A stretch of 64,000 nt of DNA from a virus: the IMG/VR virus record IMGVR_UViG_3300003465_000003, positions 35,794-99,793 of that record. One strand, 5' to 3'. This document shows positions 203-33,107 of the stretch, one piece after another. The translations under genes and the position numbers were made by a program. Position 1 is the first letter of the stretch, and every line of letters starts with the position of its first letter. The notes under the pieces were generated by a model. The model was not told where the DNA came from. It searched no databases and saw only the letters and a program-made list of their open reading frames with translations.

Positions 203-571
203 TCACTCGCCCTCCGCTGGAACAATCCAACCCTTCTGCGTTCTATATTCAACCTTAAGATTATCAGGTTGCATCAGTTCTTCTACTCGCTCATCAATAC
301 TCTTATGCTCAGTCATTAGGCTAGCACGCAGTTTGGCCCATGATTGAAATGTCTTACTCTCTGCCATCCTACGAAAGGCAAGCTCTTTGTTCTTTTGTTG
401 ACTACGGGTGTCCACTGCGCGCCCTACTGCGCCAGAGTGTTTATGTAGAATACGAACTCCTGTATTGGATGTATCTTTCCCACTTCCCCCGTGTCCACCT
501 ACTGTAAATGTCTGGACTTCGCAGTCTTTAATTGTTACGGAAAATAATGGTTTACAATTGTTCTTCGCCAT
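203..571 (-). CDS. RF-1-domain (release factor/ArfB/PrfH-like) peptidyl-tRNA hydrolase homolog with GGS in place of GGQ
   Basis: TFTVGGHGGSGKDTSNTGVRILHKHSGAVG...RSQQKNKELA aligns without gaps to the RF1 domain-3 pattern [27 protein letters not shown]...RSQHKNK. Confidence 0.8.
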   Translation of the reverse strand: MAKNNCKPLFSVTIKDCEVQTFTVGGHGGSGKDTSNTGVRILHKHSGAVGRAVDTRSQQKNKELAFRRMAESKTFQSWAKLRASLMTEHKSIDERVEELMQPDNLKVEYRTQKGWIVPAEGE

Positions 572-1241
572 TTCTAACCTTAGGCGGGACTAGTTGTTTT
601 AATATAGCCCGTATAATATCGCACTGACCACAGTTCCCAGCTTCATCAAGCGACCCGCAACCCACATGGGCTATCAGATCACTAATATGGTGCAGTTTAT
701 TCTTTGCCATTATATCTCACGCCCTATCTTTTTGCAGCCTAATTTGTATAATTCGTGAAGATGTTTCTTTACTAAAACCAGATCCTCGTCACTTGCATCT
801 TCAAATGGTATAGTGCGCTCATAACCTTTAGCAATTCTATCACGTTGCCATTGTTCACTTGATATGTCGTGTATAGCAGCAATGATATGACTTAATTCTA
901 AGTTATCATCTTCGCATACACTATGCGCTACGGCATTACCAGCGTCTCTATGCTCTTCCATGAAGGCTTGATTTAGGTCGTAGATTTCATCATCACCATA
1001 ATATTCGCGTAGGTCTTCACGACAAGCATCACACATAGCATTTATTCCTTATATCCAAACTGCCTTTCCCACTCTTCGCGCTCCCATTGACGTTGCGCCT
1101 CACGCTCTTCCTGCCTTCGTATCTCTTCCTCATTAAATTCGCAATTAAAACAACGCTCATCGTAACCGTTGAAGGTTGGGCATAAGGCATTATGTTGGTC
1201 ACACCTGAATTCTGCTTGACAATCTATACATATATGCCAAG

Positions 1242-1961
1242 TTAGATCACACATAGTTCCTCCAACGCACTTTCCCAACTGTAATACTCAGGCTCCACAA
1301 CCTGCTGTTCCCCACTCGCTATCTTTAACGCTTCTTGCCCATGTTGGACAAGCGCGGGTTGTCGAAGGATAAACGCCGGATGCGGGGCAAACACCCACTT
1401 TTTACCATCCTTCATATACTCTCTGCCTATACGGCCCATTACCCCCTTTAGATCACGTCCTAATCGTTTATCAGACGCATCTTCCGCCTCCAGTTCCTCC
1501 CGGAAAAAACACCGTTGCGGACTATCACCGAACAAGACGACAGTGTGTATGGATTCAGGAAATGAATCGTATACCCTGCATTGGGCTTCGGCAAGTAGCT
1601 TCTCTTCCCCCCTAGGATACGGTCTGCCTTGAACCTCTGGAGGTAAGCATCTAAGGGTGTTCGCATACATTATCTCCCCACGTTCTTTAGCAAGCTGAAT
1701 ACGAGGCACAGCGCGTATCAGCCAATTATCCAATACGAATCCTGCCTTGCCTACGAATGGTTCGCCCTTTAGAATCTCGTTCTTTCCAGGCGCTTCTCCC
1801 ATCAGCAAATATTTAGCCTGCTTCTGTGCCTTACGGTCTGGACAAAATCCCTGTCCTTTGTCTTTAAGGGGGCACCCCTCACACCCATTAGGCTTTAGCA
1901 ATTGTTCTCCAATATCTCGTAATCTGGCGGCAAGCGATTTGGGAAACACCATACTGCCCAT
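1242..1961 (-). CDS. Uracil-DNA glycosylase, family 4-like
   Basis: CEGCPL, GEAPGKNE, EPFVGKAG, NTLRCLPP and HPAFILR motifs. Confidence 0.9.
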   Translation of the reverse strand: MGSMVFPKSLAARLRDIGEQLLKPNGCEGCPLKDKGQGFCPDRKAQKQAKYLLMGEAPGKNEILKGEPFVGKAGFVLDNWLIRAVPRIQLAKERGEIMYANTLRCLPPEVQGRPYPRGEEKLLAEAQCRVYDSFPESIHTVVLFGDSPQRCFFREELEAEDASDKRLGRDLKGVMGRIGREYMKDGKKWVFAPHPAFILRQPALVQHGQEALKIASGEQQVVEPEYYSWESALEELCVI

Positions 1962-2305
1962 GCTGCTCCCTTAGGTCCGGCCAATACATAACCCAGTTCT
2001 TTAGCCGCCCTGCGTTCCCAATTAGGTTTTATCCAGTAACCGCCTATAACTCTGCCATAGCGAACGCACCTGTCATATTCTAGCTCAGCACACCTATTAC
2101 AAAATAGGTCATCCTCTGGTGGTTCTAGATCCCCATAACTTCCAAATGGAACACCGCTATCCGCAACTTTGCAGAACCTGCCGCATACACAACATTTTGG
2201 AGTCTGCAAATATTTACTCATTTTACACCAACATTAATGTAATTGCAAGTATAAACAATGCGCCAACTGTTCCACCAATAGAATATACCTTAATTGTTTC
2301 CGCCA

Positions 2306-2656
2306 TTATTCTCCTTTTCCGTATAAATGTAAATGTCCAGTTATTTCGTTAATCTCTTCATCTTCTGCGGGACCAATGCCGAGTCCTGTTATAGTTCCCG
2401 GCGTTACCTCGGTCCTGCCTTCATCACAGATAAGTGCGGCAGGCAAATATCTGGAGACGGCCGTCTTGTATAGGGAAATAAGGATGTCCTGCCCGTATAC
2501 ACCTAACACAATCTTTGTAGTCCCTGTTCGGCCCCATTCATCTAAATCATCTTTAGATGTCAGATTACATGCTGCTACTGCGGCATGGGCTGCTTGAGAT
2601 GCTAATTTGCCAGGGGACATTCCCAAATCCTCCCGCATCACTAATACTTGCTTCAT
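2306..2656 (-). CDS. pth2: Peptidyl-tRNA hydrolase, Pth2 family
   Basis: KQVLVMREDLGMSPGKLASQAAHA, KIVL, DEGRTEV.PGTITGLGIGP, ITGHLHL: canonical PTH2 signature. Confidence 0.93.
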   Translation of the reverse strand: MKQVLVMREDLGMSPGKLASQAAHAAVAACNLTSKDDLDEWGRTGTTKIVLGVYGQDILISLYKTAVSRYLPAALICDEGRTEVTPGTITGLGIGPAEDEEINEITGHLHLYGKGE

Positions 2657-2875
2657 GACAACCTATTTTTTATCTCATTTAGCTGCTGCATAATGACTGT
2701 AAAACCAACAACTATAGTTAACCAATCAAAAAATGCCATATTATTAACCAAAATTTGGTGCCGGCGCAAGCTGCATACAGTATAGGCACTAGGTTGTGAT
2801 GGGCAGCACAGAGCCTAGATTTTTATTACAGCTTACACCGACGTATTGCCCACTAAATATCTTTGCTAAGAGTAA

Positions 2876-2899
2876 GGGCGGCACCCTTCGATGCCGCCC
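2876..2899. terminator. GC-rich hairpin, probable intrinsic terminator
   Basis: GGGCGGCA-cccttcga-TGCCGCCC, downstream of the minus-strand ORF ending at 2986. Confidence 0.55.
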
Positions 2900-3388
2900 C
2901 TTGTTGGACTATTTTCTGCACTCACCAACTGAGTGGATCTCCTCTCTAGGTGATTCAATCCTCAAGAGGTGCTCGAATAAAATTGTTAATCTTCATCAGC
3001 GTTATCTAAGAACTCGTGTAACGCACTACTAGCTTTCTGGTAAGCTTCCACCAGTTTCCTGAAACGCTTATCTGTAATATCGTCCAGATTTATATGATCA
3101 TTAAAGAAGTAATCAAAACCTTCAATATCATATATCTTGGACAATAGTTCAGACTTGTTATAACCCTTTATTAACATATTGGTATATTGTGGGTTGCCGA
3201 GTTGCGCTCGCCCACTGGAGCCTTCTATCACATCACCCGACTGATGGGTTGAACTGTTATCGCTGGTTGGTTTCAACTAACGGGATTGTTTACAGCGCCC
3301 GTAATCAAATGGTGCGGTATTTTTGTCAATCTGGCTGAAGTTCCCCGCCCTCTTCAGTTCAGTTAGGCGCTACCTAACCTCTTCTAGC

Positions 3389-4747: not shown

Positions 4748-4772
4748 TCATTTACCTCGTATCAGTGTTTGT

Positions 4773-10153: not shown

Positions 10154-11056
10154 CTAGAATGCGCCCTCTGCAACCTGCAAACACGTCAACCCCAACTCCC
10201 GCCACATCTTGACCACACTATTCCTATCATCAAGAACAAATAGAACATTATAATCATTCCGGACATACTTATCAAACAACTCCTGCTTAACAATATAATC
10301 CTTCCTGAAATCTCCAGTAGGCCGCATCAAAAGTGGGCCACCAACTGGGCACAGATGCTTGGTCAAAAATGCTTCTGTTTGTGCTCTGAACTTATCTTCC
10401 CGTCCAGACAAATAGATGATCTTATACCTACGGTTACACATGGCAGATATAACTTCATATACTGGCAGGTTCAGGTCATCATCTGCGCACTTGGCAGCAT
10501 CATAAGGACTACGTTTTCCATCAAATAATGCCAATGTCCCATCTAGATCGCATATAATTGCCAGTGGTGTTTCCGACTTAGGAACATAATGTTCCACCTT
10601 GGGGATCGCCACATATTTCTCATACATCTCACGGATGACTTTCTCTCCTACACGCTTCCCCTCAGGACGCTTACTATCCCTTTCAATACACGTCTCTAAG
10701 GGGACATGGGTAAAGTCAACCACGCGGAATTCTGCACCATACTTCCTTGCCAAATCACTTAGGCGCTGCTTATGCTTCCCGAAGTTGCAGTCTGAGCAAA
10801 TGACGGATTCACCATGCGCCAACGCTCCCACAATAGCCTTATTACGGATTTCAATAACTTCCTTCTCCGTCTCATGTGACCACTTCCATCCTTGCTTAAC
10901 AAGCTCTGCCCTAATATCATCCTTATTAACAATAACTACCTTTTCTCCACACGCCTTAGCATTGATAACTTCCTGCTCCGCCCACGTAGTCTTACCAGAG
11001 GCCGGGATGCCTCTAGTCATCGTCAACGTCAGCTTCCTCTTCTTCCTCATAGTCAT
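10154..11056 (-). CDS. pseT: Polynucleotide 5'-kinase/3'-phosphatase (T4 PseT-like)
   Basis: RGIPASGKTTWA P-loop kinase fused to a HAD domain: DLDGTLA, SGR, K, DDR. Confidence 0.92.
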   Translation of the reverse strand: MTMRKKRKLTLTMTRGIPASGKTTWAEQEVINAKACGEKVVIVNKDDIRAELVKQGWKWSHETEKEVIEIRNKAIVGALAHGESVICSDCNFGKHKQRLSDLARKYGAEFRVVDFTHVPLETCIERDSKRPEGKRVGEKVIREMYEKYVAIPKVEHYVPKSETPLAIICDLDGTLALFDGKRSPYDAAKCADDDLNLPVYEVISAMCNRRYKIIYLSGREDKFRAQTEAFLTKHLCPVGGPLLMRPTGDFRKDYIVKQELFDKYVRNDYNVLFVLDDRNSVVKMWRELGLTCLQVAEGAF

Positions 11057-12755: not shown

Positions 12756-13385
12756 TTATGCCCTCAACGTCACATTAACCGGATGCCCAACCGGTTCATT
12801 CACTTCGTTCACATACGCTACATTATAAAACCTTGTATCGCCACTATCATATATTCCACGCGCTTCGTGTATATGCCCGCATACAAAGTTATCTGGTTTA
12901 ATTACTTTCACTTTGTAAAGTGATTCCCGTGAACCCACGTTTTGGCCACTAATAACTTTGTCAAGAATACCCATCACAGGACCATGACTAAGCAGAATAT
13001 CTAATCCTGCTGGGATAAGATCAAAGATGTCTCTCAATGCTGCCTCTGGCCGCATGAACGCCCAGGCTCCAAACGTTGGAGTCCATGGAGTGCCGTAAAT
13101 CCTTACACCCTCGATATTAACAGCCGCATCCTGCAAGTACGTCCAAGGCAAATCCAGGTGCTTCTCCTTAAGGATAAAGTCATGATTGCCTGCTATGCCT
13201 ACTATGTGCCTAGCATCAATGCTTTCCAACCACTCCTTGAATGGTCCCAGCATGAACCGCTCTTGCTGATCAAGGTTTATCTTGTCGTTATAATCCCCAC
13301 CAAGAAGCAGTAGGTCACACTTGGGGATCTCTGGCAAGTGACCATGTAAGTCACTAATTGCGAGAACATTCATCATTGGTCCCAA
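12756..13385 (-). CDS. Metallophosphoesterase (MPPED-like)
   Basis: ISDLHG, GGDY, AGNHD, YGTPWTP, SHGP, CGHIHE. Confidence 0.9.
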   Translation of the reverse strand: MGPMMNVLAISDLHGHLPEIPKCDLLLLGGDYNDKINLDQQERFMLGPFKEWLESIDARHIVGIAGNHDFILKEKHLDLPWTYLQDAAVNIEGVRIYGTPWTPTFGAWAFMRPEAALRDIFDLIPAGLDILLSHGPVMGILDKVISGQNVGSRESLYKVKVIKPDNFVCGHIHEARGIYDSGDTRFYNVAYVNEVNEPVGHPVNVTLRA

Positions 13386-13545: not shown

Positions 13546-14391
13546 TCATGTTGTTGCACCTTCTGGAACTAGCCTACCGTTTTCTAACTTGTAACGTAGG
13601 TCCCTAGCCTTCCATTGCTGTAAATAAACATTGACCATCCAGCTTTCCACTTTTTCTGTATTAGGTTCGTCTGGAAGAGGAGAAGTTTCCAACAGATCCT
13701 TAAGTTCTTGATCAAGCTCCCCTGCTTTAGTGAGGCATTCCTGCAGTGTAGCTTTACCAGTCCTCACACCCAACAACCAACTACGTTCTGGTTCCTGCAT
13801 TGGGCAAGACACTCTGCCAGTCTTCAATAGCTCTACACCCTGGAACCCAAGCCTAAGCATATGCATGGCATACTTAGTATCAAACCCATACTTTTCTACA
13901 AGCTCTGGCCTATTTATGTCCCGCTGCCCACGTTCGCCCAATAGTCTCTGCCGTTGTGCCTGACAATAACCAAGGAAAGCACGTCCAGCCTTCTTACTGA
14001 TAATGTCTGGAGCCAGCTCCATTAGCCCAAAACCCAACGCATTAGACACCACAATTTTATCGCGCGGGGCAAACAATAGATTCAGGATTGTAGGATTACC
14101 ACCTAATGCCAGCCTGAGGTACTTCCTTAAACTATAGATAACGAGATCTAAATCCCCAGCACTGTTACGCGCATTATGTTTTTGTTCCCGTTCCGCCGCA
14201 GTCCGATACACAACCTGCTCAAACTGTGAGAGCCCAACCACATGCTGAATATCTTCTACACAGACTCCCATCTCATCACGGTCCTCCATCCCATCCTGCA
14301 CATTTAACCCGTGCAGTGTAGAACCTACGACCACTCTAAGAATTGTTGTCCGCTCCGCCATTTGTTGTAGATTTTGCATTTCCGTTCCCAA
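13546..14391 (-). CDS. RlaP-type DNA pol-beta-superfamily nucleotidyltransferase
   Basis: VVGSTLHGL...DRDEMGV, DLVIYSLRKY..L...GNPTIL..LF, GFDTKYAMHMLRL. Confidence 0.85.
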   Translation of the reverse strand: MGTEMQNLQQMAERTTILRVVVGSTLHGLNVQDGMEDRDEMGVCVEDIQHVVGLSQFEQVVYRTAAEREQKHNARNSAGDLDLVIYSLRKYLRLALGGNPTILNLLFAPRDKIVVSNALGFGLMELAPDIISKKAGRAFLGYCQAQRQRLLGERGQRDINRPELVEKYGFDTKYAMHMLRLGFQGVELLKTGRVSCPMQEPERSWLLGVRTGKATLQECLTKAGELDQELKDLLETSPLPDEPNTEKVESWMVNVYLQQWKARDLRYKLENGRLVPEGATT

Positions 14392-15511: not shown

Positions 15512-16474
15512 CTAAACATTGGACTCCCTTTCAAACTGCGCCCGCAATAAGTAATCCTTATACCACTCTGCTACCCCACGTGTAATCTGTCTACTAATAT
15601 GGGGCCACGCATACTTAAACAGTACGTTCTTAATATCTTCCTCACACTCTTTAAGCACGTCCTGCGGGATCTCTCGCACCAATAATCCAATATCCTTCGG
15701 GTGGTCCTCAATTAATCCACGTTCCCGCAGATGCATGAGCGCTTTCTGCCAACGTGCTTGAGTCCCATACGCGTCTCCAAGCTTCTGGATAACATCTTTA
15801 TTGCCTGGATTCGCATCCTTCCACGCGCTGCGATGAACCTCCTTAAACGCTTCACTTACGAACTTCCCGAACAACATCTTCTTGTCTGGTCCATAAAGTG
15901 GTGTCAGAGGCTTAATCACAACCCCTTCGATCTTCTGCCCTCCCAGTACGGACTCAGTATCCAGGAACTTCCTCAGTTCCTCGGCAGAGTTCACAGTCCC
16001 TTGATAGAGCTGAGGCACGACCTCAAGTTCTATACGCTCAGCTTCCGCTACAAGCTGGTCGTAGGGCAGATAGGTTTCCTGATCAGTCAAGATATCGAAG
16101 AGGATGACGTTATCCTTTGGCACGCGGTCATAGGCCAGTGCATTATGCTTTGGTTTCGCTAGCACTTCTCCACGGTATTGCCAGCCTGGTTTCAGCAAAT
16201 GCTGCCTAGCTTTAGCAGCAGCAACAGCAGATCTGAATAGCGCTTCAGGTGCATCTGCTATCATTACCGCACCCTTGCTGCGGACCTTAAGTTCATAGAC
16301 TCCGGGAACTTCCTTGAGCAGCCCACCCTCAGGTTCCAACAATGGGTACAGCCCAAACGCAAAGAAGCTCCCATCAACCTTCTCTTGTACCTGAACAGGG
16401 ACGGTAAACAATTCGCTAACCGCCCTGTGCCCAAGGTTGAAAATTGATTGAGGGCTGCAAAATGTAGTTGACAC
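15512..16474 (-). CDS. ATP-dependent RNA ligase, probably starting at GTG 16474
   Basis: QEKVDGS adenylation motif, RGE, LFDI, VVPQLY.G, EGVVIK, KFVSEAFKE; GGGAGG RBS 6 nt before the in-frame GTG. Confidence 0.85.
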   Translation of the reverse strand: MSTTFCSPQSIFNLGHRAVSELFTVPVQVQEKVDGSFFAFGLYPLLEPEGGLLKEVPGVYELKVRSKGAVMIADAPEALFRSAVAAAKARQHLLKPGWQYRGEVLAKPKHNALAYDRVPKDNVILFDILTDQETYLPYDQLVAEAERIELEVVPQLYQGTVNSAEELRKFLDTESVLGGQKIEGVVIKPLTPLYGPDKKMLFGKFVSEAFKEVHRSAWKDANPGNKDVIQKLGDAYGTQARWQKALMHLRERGLIEDHPKDIGLLVREIPQDVLKECEEDIKNVLFKYAWPHISRQITRGVAEWYKDYLLRAQFERESNV

Positions 16475-18488: not shown

Positions 18489-19061
18489 TTACAAAATGAA
18501 GCAATCAATACGTTCATCCCCATTGCGCAGGAACGTTACCGCATATTTATACAGCCGTTTACGAGGTTCCTTATTATCTGGAACTACTGGTTGAATAGGC
18601 GCGTTGCCAACATTAGCTCTAAACTCTACCACGGCCGGTACAACTAGTTGGCGTTCAACTCGCCGTTCAACTCTAAGCCCGCCATCCGGACCTCTTACAA
18701 TAACGTCTTGCATTCCGAGCCACCGGCCAGCCATCATTTGTTGGTTGTCGGCCAGCGGAGCATTGTTGTTAAGCGGATCGGGCAATAACCGATCCGGTAC
18801 TGGTTCGTCACCTGGATAATCAATCTTATGCGATTTGCCCCACATCTTTTCTAACACTTCTAGCAAAGTGGTAGGGTCCCCGCCATTATCTTCTCTATAG
18901 TTTAACCCATTAAGTGGGAGAAACCATAGATCCAGATCTTTATTGCTCATGCCCTTATTGACTACCCCACCACCTATCGTTACATGGTAGCCAAATTTCT
19001 TGGCTACAGGTTGAATAGCCCTAAGGGTCATGATACCTTCATCTATATACCATGTCTTCAT
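18489..19061 (-). CDS. Small pol-beta-fold nucleotidyltransferase-like protein
   Basis: YHVTIGGGVVNKGMSNKDLDLWF (hGG-x-DxD) and C-terminal RIDCF. Confidence 0.6.
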   Translation of the reverse strand: MKTWYIDEGIMTLRAIQPVAKKFGYHVTIGGGVVNKGMSNKDLDLWFLPLNGLNYREDNGGDPTTLLEVLEKMWGKSHKIDYPGDEPVPDRLLPDPLNNNAPLADNQQMMAGRWLGMQDVIVRGPDGGLRVERRVERQLVVPAVVEFRANVGNAPIQPVVPDNKEPRKRLYKYAVTFLRNGDERIDCFIL

Positions 19062-19915
19062 TAGACCCTCTGTTTATAATGTTCAGGTATGTTTGCAACC
19101 CACCACTGCTCCAGCGCAGTTTGGTCTGGACTCCATACCCATATCTGTGCCGTGGTCCTTGGATGTTGCTTCATATTGAACTTCGGCCCTAATGTTACCA
19201 GTTCTCCTAACTTGTTGTCAAGTATAAATTGTGCAAATTCTGTCCCATATTTCAACCAGTGCGCTTTGCTGTGGTGGCTTCCATTTGGGTGGTCATGCGG
19301 TACCTCTGGCCCACATGAAAATACGTAGAAATTAGCTAGCTTACCCATCTTGCCCACTTCCAGATTAGGCCGGAACTTATTGATAGTTCCCAGTTGTAGG
19401 CAGCAAAACGTGACCATAGCAGCATTGGCATTAGTGTGATTTAGGGCTAGGTCCTTAATTCCCATAATAGCACAAGACCCAGCCACATAGTCCTGGATTT
19501 CCATTTATGTCCTCTATTTATTCTTTTTGTACCACTCAATTAACCCCTTCGGACTTGGTGCCCAAATATAGATCCGCACCGTATGATCAGGGTGATTAAC
19601 TCGATTCTTGCGTTTAACGCTTCGGGTTACAATCCCAAGGTTATTTTCGTTAATGTAGTCCGCAAGTTCCTGAGCATAACCAGTGTCCACGATATCATCA
19701 TCGCCATCTTTGTCACAATGCTCAACACCAGAAAATATGATGAATGCAGGAACTGACTCCGGTCTGATCTCTTGTCTACATCCCCATATTGATTTGGTTG
19801 GAGGACCCCAAAATTCCTCACATAACTGCTTCACAGTTTTGTGCGGTCTACCGGCGTTATCACGAAGATCTGAAATTTCTTCCATTGCGCAGCACGAGGT
19901 ATTAACTAGACGCAT
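19061..19915 (-). CDS. Two tandem paralogs (19061-19504 and 19514-19915) of an unknown family, related to 28108-28572
   Basis: Shared N-terminal SCA/CCA, F..FS, Y...FA/LA..I..N.LG, HP...W.P....L..W. Confidence 0.7.
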
Positions 19916-19992: not shown

Positions 19993-20877
19993 CTATTCGC
20001 CGCCCCGTGTCCACTTGATAATCGCGTCAGCATATGCGACAGATGTGTTATTTTCTACGCCCGGAGCGCGATTCACTTCCAACACAATGAACGAACCGTC
20101 TGTAAGCTTGCCCATGTCAACGGCACCGAAGTCCAACCCCAGCGCTTTAACTGCCTTAGCCGCAAGTTCACGCATAGGCGCGGTTGAACGGAACCCCTCA
20201 TAGGCGATGACCCAACCCGCGTCAAAGGACCGAATCCAAGGATGTGAAGGCTGCCCATTAGGAGCCTGCTGGCGCTGTCGTTTGATCCCTGCACGGATGG
20301 ACTTCCCATTGAACATGTGCAACCGATATTCCTCTACAATGTTCTCCTTCTTGGAGTAATAGTCGGGTGCGACAGGTGCGCGGAGCAAGTCGGAACCCCC
20401 GACGTGGTTGTTCCTGCGCGGAAGCCATTCGTCAACTACTGCAGGCTGCCGCTGCCACTCGGCGTAACGGCGGTTTTCCAGATCTGCAAACTCAATCAAG
20501 CGCTGTGCTTCGTCCCGCGCAGTGTTGCGAGTAATTGCCCGCAAGTCTATAACCCGCTCCTCAAATGGCGCTCTGGCCCTGGCGGCAGGCCGCGTCCGGC
20601 TAACCTGCACGGTAGTAACTCCAGCCCGCGCCAGTATCTGGGCTTCCTCAAACTTACTCACAGGTGCAACATTGTTAAGGACCTTAACTCCATTTGGCAC
20701 CTGCGCCGGATACCGCTCACCCCAACAGATAACGAAGTCTCCAGCCGCAATGCGCTCCTGCATCAAACGTCCCTGACTCTTGCGAGCACGCACACCCTTC
20801 AAGAGAATGTCCTCCGCCAACAGATTCGCTCCCTCACTAGCTGCTCGACGATAAACCCAAATCATCGCACCCTCCAA
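19993..20877 (-). CDS. ATP-grasp ligase (RimK-like)
   Basis: EYRLHMF, A.KAVKALGLDFGAVD, VLEVNRAPG. Confidence 0.85.
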   Translation of the reverse strand: MEGAMIWVYRRAASEGANLLAEDILLKGVRARKSQGRLMQERIAAGDFVICWGERYPAQVPNGVKVLNNVAPVSKFEEAQILARAGVTTVQVSRTRPAARARAPFEERVIDLRAITRNTARDEAQRLIEFADLENRRYAEWQRQPAVVDEWLPRRNNHVGGSDLLRAPVAPDYYSKKENIVEEYRLHMFNGKSIRAGIKRQRQQAPNGQPSHPWIRSFDAGWVIAYEGFRSTAPMRELAAKAVKALGLDFGAVDMGKLTDGSFIVLEVNRAPGVENNTSVAYADAIIKWTRGGE

Positions 20878-21753
20878 TCTCTCTGATATCCTGCACCCAA
20901 TACTGCTGTACCCATTAGCTCACTGCGTCTAATTGGAAACCCATAGTAATCCGTAAGCTCGTCGTCCCAATAAGCATCTATAACTGAGGGATCAACTGCT
21001 CCTAGATGCGCGTCACAGGGCGAACAGCCACTGGACTTCTGCCCGTCCCGAGCCTTGCCTTCACGTTCTTCAAATAGTTCTAGATCCATGCTAGGTTCTC
21101 CTTACTGCTTCTACCCAGATATAATCGAATGCATTCACGCTTGGTTTGAAGACCTCAAAGAAGAGTTTGCCGTCCTCCACCTTTACCTTGATTGCTCCCA
21201 CAATGGACTCCCCAAATTGCTCATCTTCCTGTTCCTCTCTAGTTTCAGCATCTTCTACTGAATCACATAGTTCTAGAAGAACGGAACCCGCCCCATCACT
21301 ACGTAAGTAATACGGTATCTCAAACCCCGTTACTGCAACTCCTCGTAACCAGACGTTACGTCCTCGTTGTAAGCATGAAGCAGATCCGACATACGGATCA
21401 TAGCTTCCCGCTCCCGCTTGCTAATTGTCCTTACCAAATCAGGGTCAGACATGAAATCAAGCAGCACTGTACACCTGCGGATAAGATTCACACCCTTACA
21501 CAGATCTTCAAATGTCTGTGCCTGGGTTTCGTCAATATCCTCAGCATCTTCTTCTTCTTCCACTACCTCAGCTTCAACCATACGCTGGGCATGAAGCTCT
21601 TCAAGCTTCTCAACATCGACCATCATGCTTACAATCTCCCCATCAATACAAGCCCGCGCTCATTGAATGCTTTACGTGAATACGGGTTATTTGGATCATC
21701 CTCTGGGTCAGTAATTGTTACTGTGCTATTTCCAGCCTTGTAGCGCTTGCTGT

Positions 21754-22713
21754 TTAATGCACATGCCCACTCGTATTCTGAGAGCACAATCGTGCCATTG
21801 CTACCTGAGTGTACTCCATCAGCTCCCGTTCGTACCTGATCTTCTTGTTCTCGGTTGGTCCCGCTGCCAATTTGGAGTGGAGGTTTCGAATCTTCTTGTA
21901 AAGATTCCTGCTTATTTCCCCCTTCTTCTGCAGCATTTCCGCTTCCGAGCTGGTTAGAGGTCGCACCACTTGCGGAGTCTCCCTCTTGGGTCCGACGAAA
22001 GGGCTGGCCGTGGAGCTACCCCCGGAGCTACTTTTTTTTGAGTGGTCAGCCGCTGAGTTGCACGTATAGCAGACATCCTTACCGGCCATTGCGTTGTTCG
22101 TGCATTTACCACGACTACAAATTCTGGTACTGCTGGAATAATGGACTATACCCCGCTTCCAAAAGATGTCGTTGCTGCACCACACGTCGTTGATCTTCTC
22201 CCACCCAGGACCCGTAAACAGATGCATACGCTTTGGTGTAACAATTGCCCCACGCTGCTTCGTCAGAAGCTCCATGAACCCAAATCCATAGATGCTGCAC
22301 AACCAGGCTATAGCCCTAGTATCCGACCAAGGGCCATCAGGAACAGGAACATTCGCATTAATAGCCGCATCCAAGGCCTTGTCGTCCCAATCGCTCCAAT
22401 GCCCATTGTGGAAGAGCACGGCTACCTTCCCCTTACCACTCAACTGCAACGGTGCTTCCTTACTGATAATGAATGGATGGGTCAATTCCTTGCACACGCC
22501 TCCAATAGACGCTACACGGAAGTGAGCCACGTAAGGCAGTGGAGCTTCTAGACAAAGCTTCACGAAATTGTCTTCGTCCATGATACCCTTATGCCAAACA
22601 GTATCTCCACCCTGCTGCCATGCAATGCCGCCACCGTGACTATTAGCAGCCCACGCTTTCCGCAACATCTCTTCTGTTGGCCTAGTCTTATTGGCCATCA
22701 TAATCACACACAT
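21754..22713 (-). CDS. Class II glutamine amidotransferase (Ntn hydrolase), starting at MCVI
   Basis: Cys2, N.HGGG, HFRVASIG, HPF, FHNG, SDTR. Confidence 0.88.
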   Translation of the reverse strand: MCVIMMANKTRPTEEMLRKAWAANSHGGGIAWQQGGDTVWHKGIMDEDNFVKLCLEAPLPYVAHFRVASIGGVCKELTHPFIISKEAPLQLSGKGKVAVLFHNGHWSDWDDKALDAAINANVPVPDGPWSDTRAIAWLCSIYGFGFMELLTKQRGAIVTPKRMHLFTGPGWEKINDVWCSNDIFWKRGIVHYSSSTRICSRGKCTNNAMAGKDVCYTCNSAADHSKKSSSGGSSTASPFVGPKRETPQVVRPLTSSEAEMLQKKGEISRNLYKKIRNLHSKLAAGPTENKKIRYERELMEYTQVAMARLCSQNTSGHVH

Positions 22714-22729
22714 TTTGTAGTCCCTTTCT

Positions 22730-23479
22730 TCACAAGAATTCAATATGTTCTTCGTAACCACTACCGTCTGGAAGCTCCACTCTCCCATTGATTACTTCCG
22801 GCTTCTTTCTACCCTTGCCCAATACCTGTAGTGACGCATTGGTAATGGCTACTACCTGCGCAATGGCTTCTATGGCTAATGTGGCATTCTTCATCATAGG
22901 AAGCACTCGGCATTCTATGGTGCCCAATCTGCCGCAGTAATGAATGATCGTATAACGATGCCCCTCCCTATTATGATCAAAGTCTTTGTCCCTGTACCTT
23001 GCCTGAAGATGGGGCCAAAAACCTTTCCTGCAGAATTCTGAGTTCCCATCCAAGCGCTCCCATATGTGGTGATCTGCTCTGAAGCCCTTACGTTTAGCCC
23101 ACAACTTCAGATAGTGGCAAATAGTTTCCTGATATTCTGGGACCATCAAAAGCTGATAGTGCCAAAGGGTATCGAAACTCATATGGACGTGCATACCACA
23201 AGTCTTATCCACCTTGTGAGGATAATTAAGTGTAAGTATGGGCGCAATATCATTAGGCGGTGTTGCTGGCAACGGCAACTCCCCTATGAATGGGAACAAT
23301 GCTCCGGGTCCACGATTGCGGAACACACTGCCATCCCGTTCCACTCGTTGAACACCCGGCGGAAGTTGGCTCCAAGCGCCTTCCAACTCAACACCAATTT
23401 TCTTGACTCGTGCCTTGATCTTGTCAGATCCTAGAGCACCGTCAAGGTCCAACGGTTTAATATTCTGATCCATGCCCAT
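22730..23479 (-). CDS. Putative amidoligase (GCS2/COOH-NH2 ligase fold)
   Basis: IGVELEG, DGSV, CGMHVHMS, RY, TIECR. Confidence 0.82.
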   Translation of the reverse strand: MGMDQNIKPLDLDGALGSDKIKARVKKIGVELEGAWSQLPPGVQRVERDGSVFRNRGPGALFPFIGELPLPATPPNDIAPILTLNYPHKVDKTCGMHVHMSFDTLWHYQLLMVPEYQETICHYLKLWAKRKGFRADHHIWERLDGNSEFCRKGFWPHLQARYRDKDFDHNREGHRYTIIHYCGRLGTIECRVLPMMKNATLAIEAIAQVVAITNASLQVLGKGRKKPEVINGRVELPDGSGYEEHIEFL

Positions 23480-23481
23480 AT

Positions 23482-24468
23482 TTACAACCTATATAGAAAT
23501 GCTGTGAAATCCTCAGCCGCAGGAGCCATCCACCGCTCAGCAATAGACTCCGTTGGGAAGAAGTGACCAATGCCTTTTTCACGCGCGCTGTTGCAAAAGT
23601 AGACGAACTTTGCAGATGCCCCAACCGGGAACATACTGATGTCAGCATGGCGTGTAAGGAACGGCATGATAACCTTGAAGTTCGCTACCGCCATGTCAAA
23701 ATCATTGGTATCGATAGCCAAACGAACTGCATCTATGTCTACGAGATTGGCAATATCCTGCTCCAGATTCTTACTGCCAGTGAGCGTCTCCTGTAATACA
23801 GCGACGGCCAATGACGTCATGCCATACATAAGGGACATCAGCCTGTAATCTCGCAGCCAGAAGTTGGATAGGGTACGGTACTCCAACCCATGCTTGGGTC
23901 TGCGGTACTCGCCCGCTCGCCCATAATTCTGTCTGCGTTCAGCAGAACCAGGGTCCCGGTCCAGCATAACGCCAGTGTTTCCCACAAATATGTCCATGAG
24001 CGGAACCAGACGTTCCCGTTCAGCAAGCAGTGGCCCGGACAAACCCATGTGAATATGCGCCCCAGCACTGCGCTTGGAATACGCCTTGCCATCAATATCG
24101 ATTGGCTTCGTGCCATAGAAGTTGTCGCTGGGCATACAACCAAGGACACGAGATTTCTCCGATACGCGAGCAAATTCCTCCGGCGTGACGGTAACCAATC
24201 CCTGATAATTGATTGATACCCCAGGATACCGCTTCAATACACCAGTAAGCGTGCGATACAAGTCCCCAATATTGGAGCGTAGAATCTTAAGGTCCGTGCT
24301 CGGAAATGGGTTCAACTCGAACTGAATACCGTCACGCACCACACGACCGCCGTAACTGACCAAACCCTTCTCGGGAATGATATGCTCAGACCCGATAATG
24401 CCCAATCCATCCTGTTGGAAGAATCCCTCAGGATCACAACCCCACACGACTGACGGCTGCTTCAACAT
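23482..24468 (-). CDS. phiEco32-like COOH-NH2 ligase type 2
   Basis: GCDPEGF, DGIQFELNP, RSAGAHIHMG, RRQNYGRAGEYR, GLEYRTLSNFW. Confidence 0.88.
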   Translation of the reverse strand: MLKQPSVVWGCDPEGFFQQDGLGIIGSEHIIPEKGLVSYGGRVVRDGIQFELNPFPSTDLKILRSNIGDLYRTLTGVLKRYPGVSINYQGLVTVTPEEFARVSEKSRVLGCMPSDNFYGTKPIDIDGKAYSKRSAGAHIHMGLSGPLLAERERLVPLMDIFVGNTGVMLDRDPGSAERRQNYGRAGEYRRPKHGLEYRTLSNFWLRDYRLMSLMYGMTSLAVAVLQETLTGSKNLEQDIANLVDIDAVRLAIDTNDFDMAVANFKVIMPFLTRHADISMFPVGASAKFVYFCNSAREKGIGHFFPTESIAERWMAPAAEDFTAFLYRL

Positions 24469-24769: not shown

Positions 24770-25285
24770 TCAGAACAGATTCTCTGTTGGGTTAAGCCGT
24801 TTAACTGATACTATCACATTATTGCCGGTTCGCGCATTGACCACATCGTATATGTCTTTCCATCCATTACGCGCGAGAGTCTTACGCTGCGCCACATTCT
24901 TTTCCACATCGGTGCAGATAATAGCGCTGTAACCCGCCCATTCTGCTATACGTTCCCGCATCCGCATAGCGATCGTGTTCACACCCCTGAGCTGACACTC
25001 GGTCGCTACACGAACCCCATGACTCAAGCAAAACGCGCAACAACCGGGGAGCTGCTGCAAGTTGAACCACGTCACGTAATGACCTTGTGGATGTTTAACA
25101 GCGTAACAAGTGTTGCCCTCATGAACGGTTACTGGGGGCTTTGCTATAATTTTCTCTAGCGGCTCGGTAGGCCGGTCTGGAACGTCAGACCAAGCGTTTT
25201 CCCTGTACCGAATCAGCTTAAGGCTCCCCGCTGGTTCCCCGATTGCCGCCGCAATTTCGTCTAGATATGGTCTTAGATTGAGCAT
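24770..25285 (-). CDS. GNAT-fold-like protein, paralog of 27378-27791
   Basis: LPGCCA, ECQLRGVNT (acyl-CoA motif A-like), GYSAIICT, NARTGNNV. Confidence 0.5.
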   Translation of the reverse strand: MLNLRPYLDEIAAAIGEPAGSLKLIRYRENAWSDVPDRPTEPLEKIIAKPPVTVHEGNTCYAVKHPQGHYVTWFNLQQLPGCCAFCLSHGVRVATECQLRGVNTIAMRMRERIAEWAGYSAIICTDVEKNVAQRKTLARNGWKDIYDVVNARTGNNVIVSVKRLNPTENLF

Positions 25286-25308: not shown

Positions 25309-25394
25309 TGGTACTGAGGGCGGGACTCGAACCCGCATGGACCTTAGCCCGACGGTTTTTGAAACCGTTGTGTAAGCCATTCCGCCACCTCAGT
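25309..25394 (-). tRNA. tRNA-Leu(CAA)
   Basis: ACTGAGG/CCTCAGT acceptor stem, ACGGT-TTCAAAA-ACCGT anticodon arm, long variable arm, GGTTCGAGTCC, encoded CCA. Confidence 0.92.
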
Positions 25395-25442: not shown

Positions 25443-25832
25443 ATGAAAATATATGGCCCCTATAAAGATTCAACTGGCAAACGAAATATTGTTATTCGTT
25501 ACTATCCAGATGGTAAAAGGAAAACTATGTCCAATGCTAGACATTTGATGGAGCTGCATTTGGGCCGAACTTTAGGACTAAACGAGACGGTGGACCATAT
25601 AAATGGCGACCCACTAGACGACAGAATAGACAATTTGCAGGTAATGACATTACAAGATAATATCCGCAAGTCTGCAAAGCCTGCAGAAATTTACTCATTT
25701 TACTGTTCTATGTGTGGGCAGCAAGCAGTTAAACCTATGTGTCAAGTTAAACACAATTGGAAACAGGGGAAGGCCGGCCCTTTTTGCGGCAAGAAATGCG
25801 CTCGTAAGTTCCAGATATTGGGTGGTTCCTAG
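25443..25832 (+). mobile_element. Free-standing HNH endonuclease next to tRNA-Leu
   Basis: ARHLMELHLGR.L...ETVDHINGDPLDDRIDNLQVM, plus a C-terminal Cys cluster. Confidence 0.88.
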
Positions 25833-27377: not shown

Positions 27378-27791
27378 TTAGTTATCCTCATGATACTTCG
27401 AGGGACGCTTAGGCTTAATCTTTACAGGCAACACGTAGGTAAGAACCTCCACGTCATTCCTTGTACGTGGATTCTTGAACCCAGTTGTGTTCCAGTCAGG
27501 TGCTGTTAACAGCTTTCGCAGCGCGCTACCTGACAACAGCGACAGCATCACCATCCCAAACTGCGCCTTACGTGCCGACTGCGCAACAGCTTTAATAAGC
27601 CGGAATGATTCCTTCTCCTTACCAGATATCCGATAAACAAGTAAGATGCCGCAGCATCCGGGCAACACTCGAACACTAAGCTGTGCGCCCTTATACGTAA
27701 AGGTCCACGAACTATCGGATTTGTCCTTTACGTAGACACCCTTGGTGTCCTGCAGGATCTCAGCTACCTTGGAGGTAAGATAGACTCCCAT
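27378..27791 (-). CDS. GNAT-fold-like paralog of 24770-25285
   Basis: LPGCCG, FGMVMLS, KNPRTRNDV. Confidence 0.45.
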   Translation of the reverse strand: MGVYLTSKVAEILQDTKGVYVKDKSDSSWTFTYKGAQLSVRVLPGCCGILLVYRISGKEKESFRLIKAVAQSARKAQFGMVMLSLLSGSALRKLLTAPDWNTTGFKNPRTRNDVEVLTYVLPVKIKPKRPSKYHEDN

Positions 27792-28107: not shown

Positions 28108-28572
28108 TCATTGCTGTGCTCCTTGTTTGTCATTTTTTACTGGAACATTCCCTGCGCTTGCCTCTGCCTTAGCATTGTCTGCTATCTCTTGTAACTTTTT
28201 CTCCGCCCACGCTCTGATCGCTTTGAGATCCACACTCCACACGAACATGATCGTTGGCTTATTTTTGTGTAATGGGCTTGGACGCTTCCTACTTGCCCAC
28301 ACGGTTCCCAGGCCGAGCTCCTTAATCTTTTTAGCCAGCGCCTTGCCATAAGGCTTCTTGTCTTCAGAACCATGTGTAAAATATAGGAACGCGACTTGTG
28401 GGACTACTAGTCTGCGCCCCTCAGGGTTGTTGGCCGTATTTATATGGAATGCACTCTTTGGCAAGAACATATCCATCAGCGCCAACTCGATCTTATTTAC
28501 TTGATAGTCCCTAATACCCGTAACATACCTGATATTGCAATTGCCAACACCACCAGCAAAAAAGCTAACCAT
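28108..28572 (-). CDS. Third paralog of the 19061/19514 family
   Basis: GNCNI, AFLYFT, YGKALAKKIKELGLGTV, H....MFVWSVD..AI..W. Confidence 0.6.
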   Translation of the reverse strand: MVSFFAGGVGNCNIRYVTGIRDYQVNKIELALMDMFLPKSAFHINTANNPEGRRLVVPQVAFLYFTHGSEDKKPYGKALAKKIKELGLGTVWASRKRPSPLHKNKPTIMFVWSVDLKAIRAWAEKKLQEIADNAKAEASAGNVPVKNDKQGAQQ

Positions 28573-29329: not shown

Positions 29330-30943
29330 TTACAACCTCGCAAATTCCTGAACCGCCTGCGGAACGCTGCTATCAAATCCTGCAACGTCCGTCTGGAACG
29401 GATCATTGGGGTCCGCAATAGAGAACTTCGTAGGCGTCATCGCAATAACAACCTGCTTCGCATTGATCCCCATCTTGTCCCGGTATTGCTGCAATGACTG
29501 GCTAGGATGTGGTCCTGTATTGACTTCGTTATCCGTGATAATGATAAAGCAGTCCACTTCTACCTTGTTCTTCAATGCCCATTGTGTGGGCAGAGAGCAG
29601 TTGGTAGATCCAAATCGCATTGCGTTAGTCCGCTGCAATGCATCTGTCAACCGCATCTTGGGCGTAATGCCAAGGTCGCGGAATGTATCTGCAAATCCCA
29701 TGATGTAGTTGGTCTTCTCAACCTTCGCCACAGCAAGGGCCATAGCAGCAGCACCTTCAGCACAAGTCATGTTGCATGACGGGATGCTGGCCCAACCCAT
29801 ACTGCCTGATACGTCCACACCGAACAGGAACCGCTTACCAGTAGGCTCCACGAACTTGAACGCATTGTAAAAAGCCTCATCTAAGGCATCCACAACGGCA
29901 GGAACAGGTGTCCACACGCCAGCGCCACGGAGTCCGTGTCCGGCTGCGTACTGCTTCATAGCAATAAGGATCGCCACAGGATGCACGCGATTCTTCGCAA
30001 AGCTCTGTGCCGCACGGTCCCCCGACAGCTTATCCACAACTGTATTCGCTGCATTGGATAGTGGCTTAAGCAACCCGACCTTGCTCATATTGCCTAGATT
30101 ACGCAACAGAGCGTGCGGCGGCATCTTCTCCAAGAGAGCTTCCCACACTTCCGGCTTGGTAAGAGCCTCAGTGGGGAGCATCTCGCGGGAGAGATTGTAG
30201 TCGCGGATTAAGGACACCAAGTAATTCGTGTTAGTGCCGGATCTCTTTGCGAACTCGAATGCGGACACGATCAGTGGACCCTTGTAATTCTGGATATCTG
30301 CACCCTCGACCCTGCCTAAATCAATACCATCTACGATCCAGTTGTAAAGAATGTTCCGCACTTCATCTTCAGTCTTGGGGTGCGCCAACCGCAGTGCGTC
30401 CCTGTTGCTGAACCCATCCCGGCTCTGATACTTGACAACCTGATACGCCAATTCTTCAACCGGCTTGCTGTTGTACCACTCAGCTACCGCCCGCTTCAGC
30501 GCACGACCCCAACCACGGAACTGCTGAACGTAGGTCAGGAAGTGGAACAAGTGCGTCGGGATACGGGCCACCTTGGGCAACGCAGCAAGTGCATACGCCC
30601 GCGTACCGGCATCCTTAGCAGACGCAGCAAGGGCAAGAGCAAACAGGGCAGGATCATTTTTAACCGCCCGACCCTCATCAGAGATGGCTACGATAAGGTC
30701 AATTGCCCTCTTACCATCGGCTTCGATGCACTTGATGACATTCTCTGCATTCTCGCGTGTAAGCTTCTGTTCCCCAACATAGTAAGAGCCGCCCTCAGAT
30801 CCAAGGATAAGGAATCGTTCCATCTGCTTGAATTGGTCAAGTCGGTAGACGAACCCACCAGTGTTATTAGCAACCTGCTGCCGTCCCAGAATCGGCTCAT
30901 GCACGGACGAAATACGCGTGTTAAGCGAAGTGTATGCCTTCAT
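29330..30943 (-). CDS. rsr: Ro60/Rsr TROVE-domain RNA-binding protein with vWA domain
   Basis: NNTGGFVY, RFLILGSEGGSYY, GWGRALKRAVAEWY, KYQSRDG, ALLRNLG, RVHP, DVSGSM MIDAS, ITDNE, AGFDS. Confidence 0.95.
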   Translation of the reverse strand: MKAYTSLNTRISSVHEPILGRQQVANNTGGFVYRLDQFKQMERFLILGSEGGSYYVGEQKLTRENAENVIKCIEADGKRAIDLIVAISDEGRAVKNDPALFALALAASAKDAGTRAYALAALPKVARIPTHLFHFLTYVQQFRGWGRALKRAVAEWYNSKPVEELAYQVVKYQSRDGFSNRDALRLAHPKTEDEVRNILYNWIVDGIDLGRVEGADIQNYKGPLIVSAFEFAKRSGTNTNYLVSLIRDYNLSREMLPTEALTKPEVWEALLEKMPPHALLRNLGNMSKVGLLKPLSNAANTVVDKLSGDRAAQSFAKNRVHPVAILIAMKQYAAGHGLRGAGVWTPVPAVVDALDEAFYNAFKFVEPTGKRFLFGVDVSGSMGWASIPSCNMTCAEGAAAMALAVAKVEKTNYIMGFADTFRDLGITPKMRLTDALQRTNAMRFGSTNCSLPTQWALKNKVEVDCFIIITDNEVNTGPHPSQSLQQYRDKMGINAKQVVIAMTPTKFSIADPNDPFQTDVAGFDSSVPQAVQEFARL

Positions 30944-31568: not shown

Positions 31569-31637
31569 TGCCGCGAACAAATGTGTAAGCAGCGGTTTTA
31601 TCTTTAGCATGATAACGCTACTCAACGGCTCGTGGCA
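31569..31637 (-). ncRNA. Short Y-RNA-like RNA 1 (Ro-binding module only)
   Basis: GCCACGAGC-CG...GCGUUAUC...CGCUGCUUACACAUUUGUUCGCGGC: terminal stem and motifs shared with YrlA at 32497. Confidence 0.7.
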
Positions 31638-31874
31638 CGTTTCATACACCCACTATTTTGGTTTCGCCGGAATGCACAGCACTCAGTATGGCGTCTCGAA
31701 CTACCCCATAATAGTGAAGCTTATTATGACCGTTAAGAAAGACATCAAAATCATCAGCAAGGTCTATTGCTTCTTTAACCGTAAGTTCAATTACAACTTT
31801 CTCTACCGGTGGGAGCTTCTCCACTGGTCTAATTCCCGTAATCTTCATGATATTCTCCTAGGTGCTGAAAGGGT

Positions 31875-31968
31875 GGCGACTGGCTGTGGAGTCAACGGCG
31901 TTTAGTCCGGACCTAAAACGGCTATGCTTAGTCCACAGAGACTTGCCGCAGTGTCGTCTCCAGTCACC
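31875..31968 (-). ncRNA. Unassigned multi-stem RNA B
   Basis: GGUGACUGG/CCAGUCGCC closing stem, AGAC/GUCU, CUGUGGA/UCCACAG and an inner hairpin. Confidence 0.5.
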
Positions 31969-31971
31969 TGT

Positions 31972-32072
31972 ATTGGGCAGATTGCTTGACCCATCCGCAG
32001 TTCTGCGTCCCCAATACATAGTCAAGATTAGATAGGGGCTCTTAGCACACTGCTAGATTTTATCTGCCCAAT
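31972..32072 (-). ncRNA. Unassigned multi-stem RNA A
   Basis: 11-bp AUUGGGCAGAU/AUCUGCCCAAU closing stem, UAGCA/UGCUA, CUUGACU/GGUCAAG, CGCAG/CUGCG, possible CCCC/GGGG pseudoknot. Confidence 0.5.
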
Positions 32073-32157
32073 TGGTGGAGCGTACGGGACTCGAACCCGC
32101 GTCCTGCCATGTTATTCATTGCCGCGAATCTGCACTGCAATGTCAATGACACGCCCC
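32073..32157 (-). ncRNA. Miniature tmRNA-like RNA (tRNA-like domain only, Ala identity)
   Basis: 5' GGGGCGU and 3' GGACGCGGGUUCGAGUCCCGUACGCUCCACCA; G3.U70 pair; no D stem; 85 nt in total. Confidence 0.7.
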
Positions 32158-32167
32158 ATAAATGTGG

Positions 32168-32241
32168 GGCACGAGCAAGGTGTAGATCAGGGTGTTTGGT
32201 CATTGACTAAGAATGATAACCCTAACCAAGCGGCTCGTGCC
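32168..32241 (-). ncRNA. Short Y-RNA-like RNA 2 (Ro-binding module only)
   Basis: GGCACGAGC/GCUCGUGCC perfect terminal stem, CG, GGUUAUC, ACACCUUG. Confidence 0.75.
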
Positions 32242-32496
32242 GTTCTTGTTACCGATTCTGACTAGCTCTCTTGCGTGCTAAATCGTTATAGAACCAGACA
32301 TCGTGTAAGGAAACACCAGTAGGCGGTAAATCAGGGACAGACGCTGGATGCGAGGTGCAAAGAACACCAACGGCCGCATTACCATGAATACTTACTGGCA
32401 GTTCTGGATCGAACTTGCTTAATTCGTCCATCAACTTACCAACTGTCCATCGTTCCAACATTGCCATAAGTAAACTACCACCTTTTCCTTAATGTT

Positions 32497-32632
32497 GCGC
32501 AGAACAAGTTGTGACTAAGGTTACGTTTTGACGGTCGCTCTACCACTGAGCTACGTTGGGGAGATCCCCAACGGCGGGAATCGAACCCGCGACATACTGT
32601 GTATTGATAACCCTCAGTCTACGGCTCTACGC
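32497..32632 (-). ncRNA. yrlA: YrlA-type Y RNA with permuted tRNA-like domain
   Basis: GAGCCG...GGUUAUC, then T arm GCGGGUUCGAUUCCCGC, closed acceptor-like stem CGUUGGGGA/UCCCCAACG, D arm GCUCAGUGGUAGAGC, then ACAACUUGUUC; upstream of Ro60. Confidence 0.85.
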
Positions 32633-33031
32633 TTGTTTCACACGTGATCAATTTGGCGTAAATCTCTTTAGCTGCACGCTTATAAGCCTCGGACCATCCA
32701 CGCAATGACTGCGGACCTGTAGGGCTACTACATGTAACCAGTGCGGATCTTATAACTCGCAGTTCTGCAATAATCAGGCCAGTAATACTGTAAGATTCCA
32801 TTGTTTGTGTAACTCGTTCTACTTTAGCCATTGACTTTCTCCATGAACCAAATGGGGCTACGGACCCGCAACACTTTGGACCTTGGCCACATAACATTTC
32901 TTTGCTTACAAGACTCGTCATGGGGCTCCTTCATTGGAACCCTGGAGTCTCCACCGTTTCCAAAGACGTGTCTTTCGCAGGACGCGCAAACAAGTTCATG
33001 CTTAGGAAACCTGTTGGTCATAGGTTAAAAT

Positions 33032-33107
33032 TGGAGGGCGGAAGGGACTCGAACCCCTCATATCTATTGCGCATTCCGGCAAGGGAGACCATTCACCTGC
33101 ACGCCCC
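33032..33107 (-). tRNA. Degenerate tRNA-like RNA (76 nt, no clear anticodon)
   Basis: GGGCG/CGCCC acceptor, G18G19, T arm AGGGG-UUCGAGU-CCCUU, UCCA end; D and anticodon arms non-canonical. Confidence 0.55.

Follow-up and report, generated by a model that had tools for sequence, protein, structure and literature searches.

Measures by which phages repair RNA and rescue ribosomes after host attack on translation were described by Iyer, Anantharaman, Krishnan, Burroughs, and Aravind in 2021 (PMC7824862, section 3.4.9), and a phage kit for RNA repair and ribosome rescue is thus not a new idea. The complement described in jumbo phages (PMC7824862) comprises tRNAs, ATP-grasp RNA ligases, PNK, phosphoesterases, RlaP, TROVE proteins with a tRNA-like partner, and archaeal-type PTH2. 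A similar complement is found in positions 203 to 33,107 of the 64,000-nucleotide stretch of viral DNA analyzed here (the window), which consists of bases 35794-99793, the right 64 kb, of the 99,793-bp IMG/VR virus record IMGVR_UViG_3300003465_000003, rated complete by CheckV. The window phage differs from the jumbo phages in its size of ~100 kb, in the addition of an RF-1-domain protein with a GGS motif and of a transfer-messenger RNA (tmRNA) reduced to its tRNA-like domain (TLD), and in carrying only five tRNAs. An initial annotation had read these parts as one complete counter-defense against host ribotoxins. They are better explained, with a probability of about 0.6, as three separate accessory modules of known kinds carried in one leftward early/middle arm and, because they were gained and lost independently, not as one co-inherited system.

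Module A consists of the RF-1-domain protein and a Pth2-type peptidyl-tRNA hydrolase, which would hydrolyze peptidyl-tRNA on and off stalled ribosomes. In module B, PNKP and two phosphoesterases would convert breaks ending in 2′,3′-cyclic phosphate and 5′-OH to 3′-OH and 5′-phosphate ends, after which RlaP would replace lost nucleotides and an RNA ligase would seal the break. In module C, Ro60, a YrlA-like RNA, two candidate Y-like hairpins, and the TLD-only tmRNA would form ribonucleoproteins that engage host RNA-decay and trans-translation factors. All three plausibly serve to preserve a usable translation apparatus while infection proceeds, also in the aftermath of attack by host RNases.

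To assess how these parts are distributed, 15 IMG/VR records were assembled in panels anchored on homologs of Ro60, RF-1, or RlaP, and whole records were searched for six families and for tmRNA; five records of cultured phages were added, for a total of 20 other records. The full set occurred in none of the 20. Three complete genomes anchored on Ro60 (G001, G002, and G004) contained TROVE and no other searched family, whereas smaller combinations recurred: RlaP lay 3-5 kb from TROVE in G010, G011, and G013; the ligase, Pth2, RlaP, and PNKP lay within 6.5 kb in G012; RF-1 and a ligase occurred together in G006, G008, and Tunturi_3; and WXIN carried RF-1, Pth2, PNKP, RlaP, and a ligase. The eight RF-1-bearing lineages contained an RNA ligase in seven cases, Pth2 in five, RlaP and PNKP in four each, and TROVE in two. 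Since Pth2 is rare in the cultured collection (14 of 50,697 records by tblastn with the window query, a lower bound), the associations of RF-1 with Pth2 and with a ligase look real, within a sample that is small, anchored on single genes, and subject to two confounders, namely genome size and the presence of three mycobacteriophage lineages. The co-occurrence across related phages that the initial annotation had proposed as a check thus holds for sub-modules, which do travel together, and fails for the set as a whole.

The closest comparison is provided by G007, a 98.6-kb record found via the RF-1 anchor and the only syntenic relative of the window phage. The near-identity DNA search against cultured phages returned no match, leaving the window phage with no close cultured relative; its TerL is at most 27% identical to those of cultured phages, the TerL anchor recovered only five short fragments from IMG/VR, and the Pth2 anchor recovered no relative there. 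The TerL proteins of G007 and the window phage are 49-52% identical, and 56 open reading frames (ORFs) match collinearly. Both genomes carry RF-1 (62% identical, with GGS), PNKP, both phosphoesterases, the deaminase, a nucleotidyltransferase candidate, and the amidoligase genes. However, G007 contains no RlaP, no Ro60, and no TLD-only or Y-like RNA; its Pth2 is divergent, its ligase is a different one located elsewhere, and its set of tRNAs also differs. Compared with its G007 counterpart, the PNKP block of the window phage carries RlaP and the ligase as insertions, which looks like the accretion of related functions at one site. As a separate observation, TerL of G007 lies in an 857-aa open frame (G007:C1:35534-37912) in which the match to the window-phage TerL is split by ~1 kb, which may represent an intein or another insertion.

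Two actinophages carry comparable complements in different arrangements. Mycobacterium phage Napoleon13 (MK359344), a Bixzunavirus (Bxz1-like, cluster C1), has almost the same set scattered over 150 kb, namely RlaP (0.5 kb), a Pth2-like gene (90.8 kb), tmRNA and tRNAs (95-97 kb), RF-1 (115.5 kb), Ro60 (128 kb), and a PNKP-HAD domain (148.6 kb). It differs from the window phage in its intact GGQ, its full-length tmRNA, and its more than 20 tRNAs, and no PF09414 or RtcB ligase was found in it; protein identity between the two phages is ~40-45%, and their TerL proteins are unrelated. Mycobacterium phage prophiT49-2 (OQ417962) resembles the window phage in having RF-1 and Pth2 ~2 kb apart and linked to an RNA ligase and a tmRNA-type RNA. 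Its tRNA array, full tmRNA, RF-1, RtcB, and Pth2 form a tight cluster of ~8 kb rather than a dispersed set; the ligase is of the RtcB type, the tmRNA has a tag, and there is no PNKP or Ro60.

The genes of module B lie between 10.1 and 16.5 kb of the window in the order PNKP, two metallophosphoesterases, RlaP, a small deaminase, and the RNA ligase; like all the repair and rescue parts described here, they are on the minus strand. The PNKP (10154..11056) is of the T4 type, with an N-terminal P-loop kinase (GIPASGKT) and a C-terminal HAD phosphatase (DLDGT) in one chain. It matches PF25109 at 159 bits, AAA_33, HAD_PNKP, and phrog_505 (E 1e-87), and, among structures, Pnkp1 (4XRP, E 3e-38) and T4 Pnkp (1LTQ, E 2e-35, with residues 4-301 aligned). 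The two phosphoesterases of the initial annotation were likewise confirmed, both as calcineurin-like enzymes with complete metal-binding motifs. The one at 11549..12139 matches phrog_547 (E 4e-39) and 1XM7 (E 4e-9) and contains the DxH, GD, GNHD, and GHxH motifs, and the other, at 12756..13385, is MPPED2-like and matches PF00149, PF12850, and 3RL4 (E 6e-27). RlaP, an RNA-ligase-associated pol-beta nucleotidyltransferase (13546..14391; PF10127, 104 bits; phrog_388, E 3e-62), carries the pol-beta GS...DRD motif and lies 1.1 kb from the ligase; in G012, too, RlaP neighbors a ligase.

The ligase (15512..16473, in an ORF extending to 16600) is an ATP-dependent RNA ligase of the PF09414 superfamily (58 bits; phrog_548, E 8e-27), and its motifs I, IV, and V are intact (EKVDGS, EGVVIK, and FGKFV). 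Its true start is probably the GTG near 16473, which is preceded by the ribosome-binding site GGGAGG. An antisense ORF (16506-17015, plus strand), whose identity as an HNH enzyme was not confirmed because it has no Pfam match, overlaps the ligase ORF at its 5′ end. The Rnl1 model PF09511 gave the ligase only 13 bits, and searches of the whole phage genome found neither an Rnl1-type ligase nor a generic NTP_transf_2 protein. The sole match of the ligase in the PDB sequence search, the designed repeat protein CTPR-rv4 (7OBI, E 6e-4), was rejected as spurious; the same searches returned no match for RlaP or for the deaminase. Two pol-beta nucleotidyltransferases had been annotated initially, of which RlaP is secure. 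The second, a protein of 190 aa (18489..19061, minus strand) with a homolog in G007, is a weak, motif-level candidate: it has a GG-x9-DLD motif and no Pfam or PHROG match, and atlas structure and feature matches to the PolX palm and NTP_transf_2 were weak and at the level of a lead.

The composition of this block is that of the classical healing-and-sealing pathway with RlaP added, with activities and substrates that are predicted from the families and intact motifs. The best-known counterpart is the repair of PrrC-cleaved tRNA-Lys by T4 Pnkp and Rnl1, with which the window phage shares a full-length homolog of T4 Pnkp and an ATP-dependent RNA ligase; unlike T4, its ligase belongs to PF09414 rather than to the Rnl1 family, and RlaP and the two metallophosphoesterases are extra.

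In module A, the RF-1 (GGQ-domain) protein (122 aa; 203..571, minus strand) matches PF00472 at 38 bits, against a cut-off of 35, and phrog_3122 (E 2e-29), and it aligns with domain 3 of RF1 except that the Q of the invariant catalytic GGQ is replaced by S. It therefore does not have the motif of class I release factors and ArfB, and its tail is acidic rather than ArfB-like and basic, with 7 K/R against 9 D/E in residues 75-122. Given the GGS motif and the acidic tail, the protein was classified neither as ArfB nor as a canonical release factor, and the RF-like factor of the initial annotation stands only as an RF-1-domain protein. The GGS is kept in three IMG/VR homologs (L019, L020, and L021; four contigs including the window) at 53-65% identity, which share the sub-clade sequence GGHGGSGKDTSNTG, whereas the more distant homologs of Tunturi_3 and mycobacteriophages retain GGQ (GGKGGQ). 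Because it is kept in four contigs while more distant homologs keep GGQ, GGS is, judging from the alignment, a derived and maintained state and not a sequencing error. Release-factor catalysis depends less on the glutamine side chain than on the glycines and the backbone, and a hydrolase activity of the GGS protein is thus plausible. Homologs were found in 211 cultured-phage records, 205 of which are mycobacteriophages.

The Pth2-type peptidyl-tRNA hydrolase (116 aa; 2306..2656, minus strand) matches PF01981 at 120 bits over profile positions 1-115 of 115 and archaeal Pth2 (2ZV3, E 9e-25) over its full length, in agreement with the initial assignment. The two genes are ~2 kb apart within replication and recombination genes. 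A pairing of a release-factor homolog with an RNA ligase is known from the bacterial PrfH-RtcB2 system, which rescues and repairs ribosomes (PMC9304027), and is paralleled by the co-occurrence of RF-1 and a ligase in seven of eight phage lineages; however, the window-phage protein consists of the GGQ domain alone, reads GGS, and is not adjacent to the ligase, and the window phage has no RtcB.

The protein of module C is Ro60 (29330..30943, minus strand), with TROVE and vWA domains (PF25045, 183 bits; PF05731, 132 bits; vWA_Ro60) and 41-46% identity to the Ro-like proteins of 356 cultured phages. A YrlA-like Y RNA, whose T arm and D arm resemble those of tRNA, lies at 32514..32614 on the same strand and folds with a z-score of -2.8. 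Its RF02553 score of 40 bits (E 1e-6) is below the gathering score of 69, but in six of nine other viral Ro60 loci similar sub-threshold YrlA matches directly precede Ro60 and share its orientation, and the YrlA-like RNA was accepted because of this recurrent position; binding to Ro60 is predicted. The further Y RNAs of the initial annotation are stable hairpins of candidate status, namely two candidate short Y-like stem-loops at 32168..32241 (fold z-score -3.9) and 31570..31636 (fold z-score -2.6), both on the minus strand, which share CACGAGCCG and GUUAUCA; the only two occurrences of CACGAGCCG in the 99.8-kb genome are in these stem-loops. YrlA RNAs beside phage Ro60 were already known (PMC4201824), and the Ro60-Yrl complex of Thermus phage phiLo binds and attenuates host PNPase (PMC12135203). 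As in phiLo, with its Yrl1 and Yrl2, and in the YrlA-Ro60 loci, the Y-like RNA genes of the window phage precede Ro60 in the same orientation, but the window phage has up to three Y-like RNAs and two tRNA or tmRNA mimics, with small ORFs in between.

Within this array lies the TLD-only mini-tmRNA (32073..32157, minus strand; 85 nt; RF00023, 31 bits, E 3e-10), which bears out the initial annotation of a mini-tmRNA. It matches the tmRNA model at both ends, with an encoded CCA, a T arm, and G3:U70 in the acceptor stem, and 276 central positions of the model are replaced by an 8-nt hairpin loop. No tag reading frame and no pseudoknots are present, so that a mRNA-like domain is absent, and ARAGORN at its default settings calls no tmRNA. 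The only named phage example of a TLD-only tmRNA found in the literature is mycobacteriophage DS6A; a molecule similar to it was reported to inhibit tmRNA strongly, perhaps by titrating SmpB (PMC4131195, PMC11915505). The RNA of the window phage is likewise reduced to the tRNA-like domain with no tag frame, but it belongs to a different lineage and sits in a small-RNA array upstream of Ro60. No SmpB was found in a search of the whole phage genome, and the mini-tmRNA must therefore use or sequester SmpB of the host. Because the DS6A-type RNA is reported to inhibit tmRNA and phiLo Ro60-Yrl attenuates PNPase, module C may, by analogy, act on host factors instead of repairing RNA.

An exact-pattern scan of IMG/VR for G3:U70 and CTCCACCA, followed by filtering for non-tRNA RNAs of 73-132 nt, yielded at least about 36 distinct candidate TLD-only RNAs, of which at least 13 have strict TLD hallmarks (alignment A1: L043, L050, L051, L056, L060, L063, L083, L086, L090, L097, L129, L148, and L149). 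These strict RNAs are 78-84 nt long, come from unrelated viral contigs, and share the layout GGGG..GGUUUCGAC, P2 helix, GGAC, T arm, and CTCCACCA. Since they align with the RNA of the window phage and the P2 helix covaries across the 14 aligned sequences, with double changes in six of seven pairs, TLD-only tmRNAs are, on this comparative evidence, a recurrent viral RNA class. Their distribution does not follow that of module A: among the matches listed, none of 19 records with a mini-tmRNA carried Pth2 or an RF-1 domain, only three of these records being at least 90% complete, and no TLD-only RNA was found in the RF-1(GGS) phages searched. A fixed triad of mini-tmRNA, RF-1, and Pth2 is thus not supported. 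Matches to the tmRNA model in other panel records proved to be tRNA-Pro and part of a Y-like RNA and were discarded as TLD-only RNAs.

Where the initial annotation listed tRNAs, only tRNA-Leu(CAA) (25309..25394, minus strand; ARAGORN and Rfam, 49 bits) is a bona fide tRNA within positions 203-33107. The element at 33033..33107 (minus strand), read from the sequence, is a degenerate tRNA-like structure with a T arm and a 6-bp acceptor-like stem; it has neither G3:U70 nor CCA, folds no better than shuffles, has no Rfam match at E<=10, and was matched by ARAGORN solely at a relaxed threshold and with a 4-base "anticodon". Elsewhere in the window, ARAGORN calls a tRNA with the ochre-suppressor anticodon UUA at 60554-60629 (plus strand; Rfam tRNA, 47.5 bits), and a second T-loop-like motif, GGTTCGAATCC, occurs just upstream at 60524-60534; there is no sign of TAA recoding, since translation under code 11 leaves the large structural ORFs uninterrupted.

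The three modules lie in a leftward arm of ~58 kb, to which the almost exclusively minus-strand coding of window positions 1-35,000 belongs and which also encodes a DNA polymerase, UDG, nucleases, a DnaB-like helicase, and an amidoligase module. The latter (19993-24468, minus strand) comprises a RimK-like ATP-grasp protein, a protein with a GAT-like N-terminus, a 249-aa protein, and a phiEco32-type COOH-NH2 ligase, and its gene order is kept in G007. Two small paralogous protein families are represented by 19061-19915 with 28108-28572 and by 24770-25285 with 27378-27791; one has a common ...IWVWSP...W.. C-terminus and the other a PGCC motif. Adjoining tRNA-Leu, an ORF at 25443-25832 (plus strand), antisense within the minus-strand arm, encodes an HNH_3 endonuclease (E 3e-9). 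Farther right, window positions 44001-52000 have a GC content of 0.56-0.62, compared with 0.44-0.52 in the rest of the window, and the ORFs there have no Pfam matches apart from a DUF3631 protein at 51161-52306.

The modular reading has to be weighed against several observations that count against it. The GGS motif and acidic tail make the activity and the ribosome targeting of the RF-like protein uncertain. Its gene abuts the DNA polymerase gene (genome 33961-35775, just downstream), and in the Bixzunavirus Napoleon13 the RF-1 gene (115496-115906) overlaps the end of dnaE and precedes recA, a context beside the polymerase in both phages that gives no hint of RNA repair. As for the metallophosphoesterases and the deaminase, their role could instead lie in nucleotide metabolism or cyclic-nucleotide signaling. 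The panels are small and anchored on single genes, three of the RF-1 lineages are mycobacteriophages, and large genomes carry more accessory genes anyway. Even so, the complete counter-defense of the initial annotation, one co-selected system acting on host ribotoxins through ribosome release, peptidyl-tRNA recycling, end healing, and sealing, is not supported and, being considerably less probable, appears unlikely. Every biochemical step is represented in one genome, the parts are partly linked in G012 and prophiT49-2, and there are precedents in T4 Pnkp and Rnl1 against PrrC and in PrfH-RtcB2 against colicin E3 (PMC7824862, PMC9304027). However, the full set recurs in none of the other 20 records, the closest relative, G007, is without three of the parts, the Ro60-anchored complete genomes have none of the other families, and the mini-tmRNA was accompanied by Pth2 or RF-1 in none of its 19 listed records. 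Moreover, the genes are scattered across 33 kb among replication and amidoligase genes, whole-genome searches found no CCA-adding enzyme or KptA, in addition to the missing SmpB, there are only five tRNAs, and the TLD-only tmRNA and Ro60 may act against host RNA machinery (PMC4131195, PMC12135203) rather than in repair. Slightly less probable again, and very doubtful, is a single program in which host tmRNA-SmpB tagging would be switched off or circumvented by the TLD-only tmRNA, a PrmC-independent GGS RF domain and Pth2 would free untagged chains, and the repair block would restore cut tRNA or rRNA.

A part of the set could instead manipulate the host, and this is the strongest of the alternatives, although still a tentative one: the tmRNA would be a decoy that titrates SmpB, and with it AlaRS and EF-Tu, and blocks tagging, Ro60 and the Y RNAs would capture and attenuate PNPase, and RF-1 and Pth2 would provide rescue free of tags. 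The reported inhibition of tmRNA by a DS6A-like molecule, perhaps through SmpB titration (PMC4131195, PMC11915505), the phiLo precedent (PMC12135203), the lack of a phage SmpB, and the recurrence of TLD-only RNAs in viral contigs without rescue proteins are all consistent with this proposal, whereas TLD-only RNAs are missing from the other RF-1(GGS) phages; the proposal is also compatible with RNA repair by module B and does not exclude it. Rather less credible is that the genes handle self-inflicted damage or heavy translational demand, such as non-stop messages arising from host mRNA decay or codon demand, and not host defenses. In its favor, the genes all lie in the early/middle arm beside replication and nucleotide-metabolism genes, and a role in maintaining the hijacked translation machinery has been suggested for phage tmRNAs (PMC9004378). 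However, the analysis identified no mRNA endonuclease encoded by the window phage, pairs of PNKP and ligase are classically tied to anticodon-nuclease defense (PMC7824862), and this explanation and counter-defense are inseparable by sequence alone. The reading as three independently exchanged modules thus remains preferred, and any link of these modules to host defense is a predicted one.

Thus, the RNA-repair and ribosome-rescue complement known from jumbo phages and actinophages is also present in an uncultured lineage of ~100 kb, where it appears to be built of exchangeable modules. The leads that emerge are an RF-1-domain protein recurrently paired with an RNA ligase and with Pth2, including a sub-clade in which GGS is conserved, and a set of at least 13, and possibly at least about 36, distinct TLD-only tmRNAs in viral contigs.

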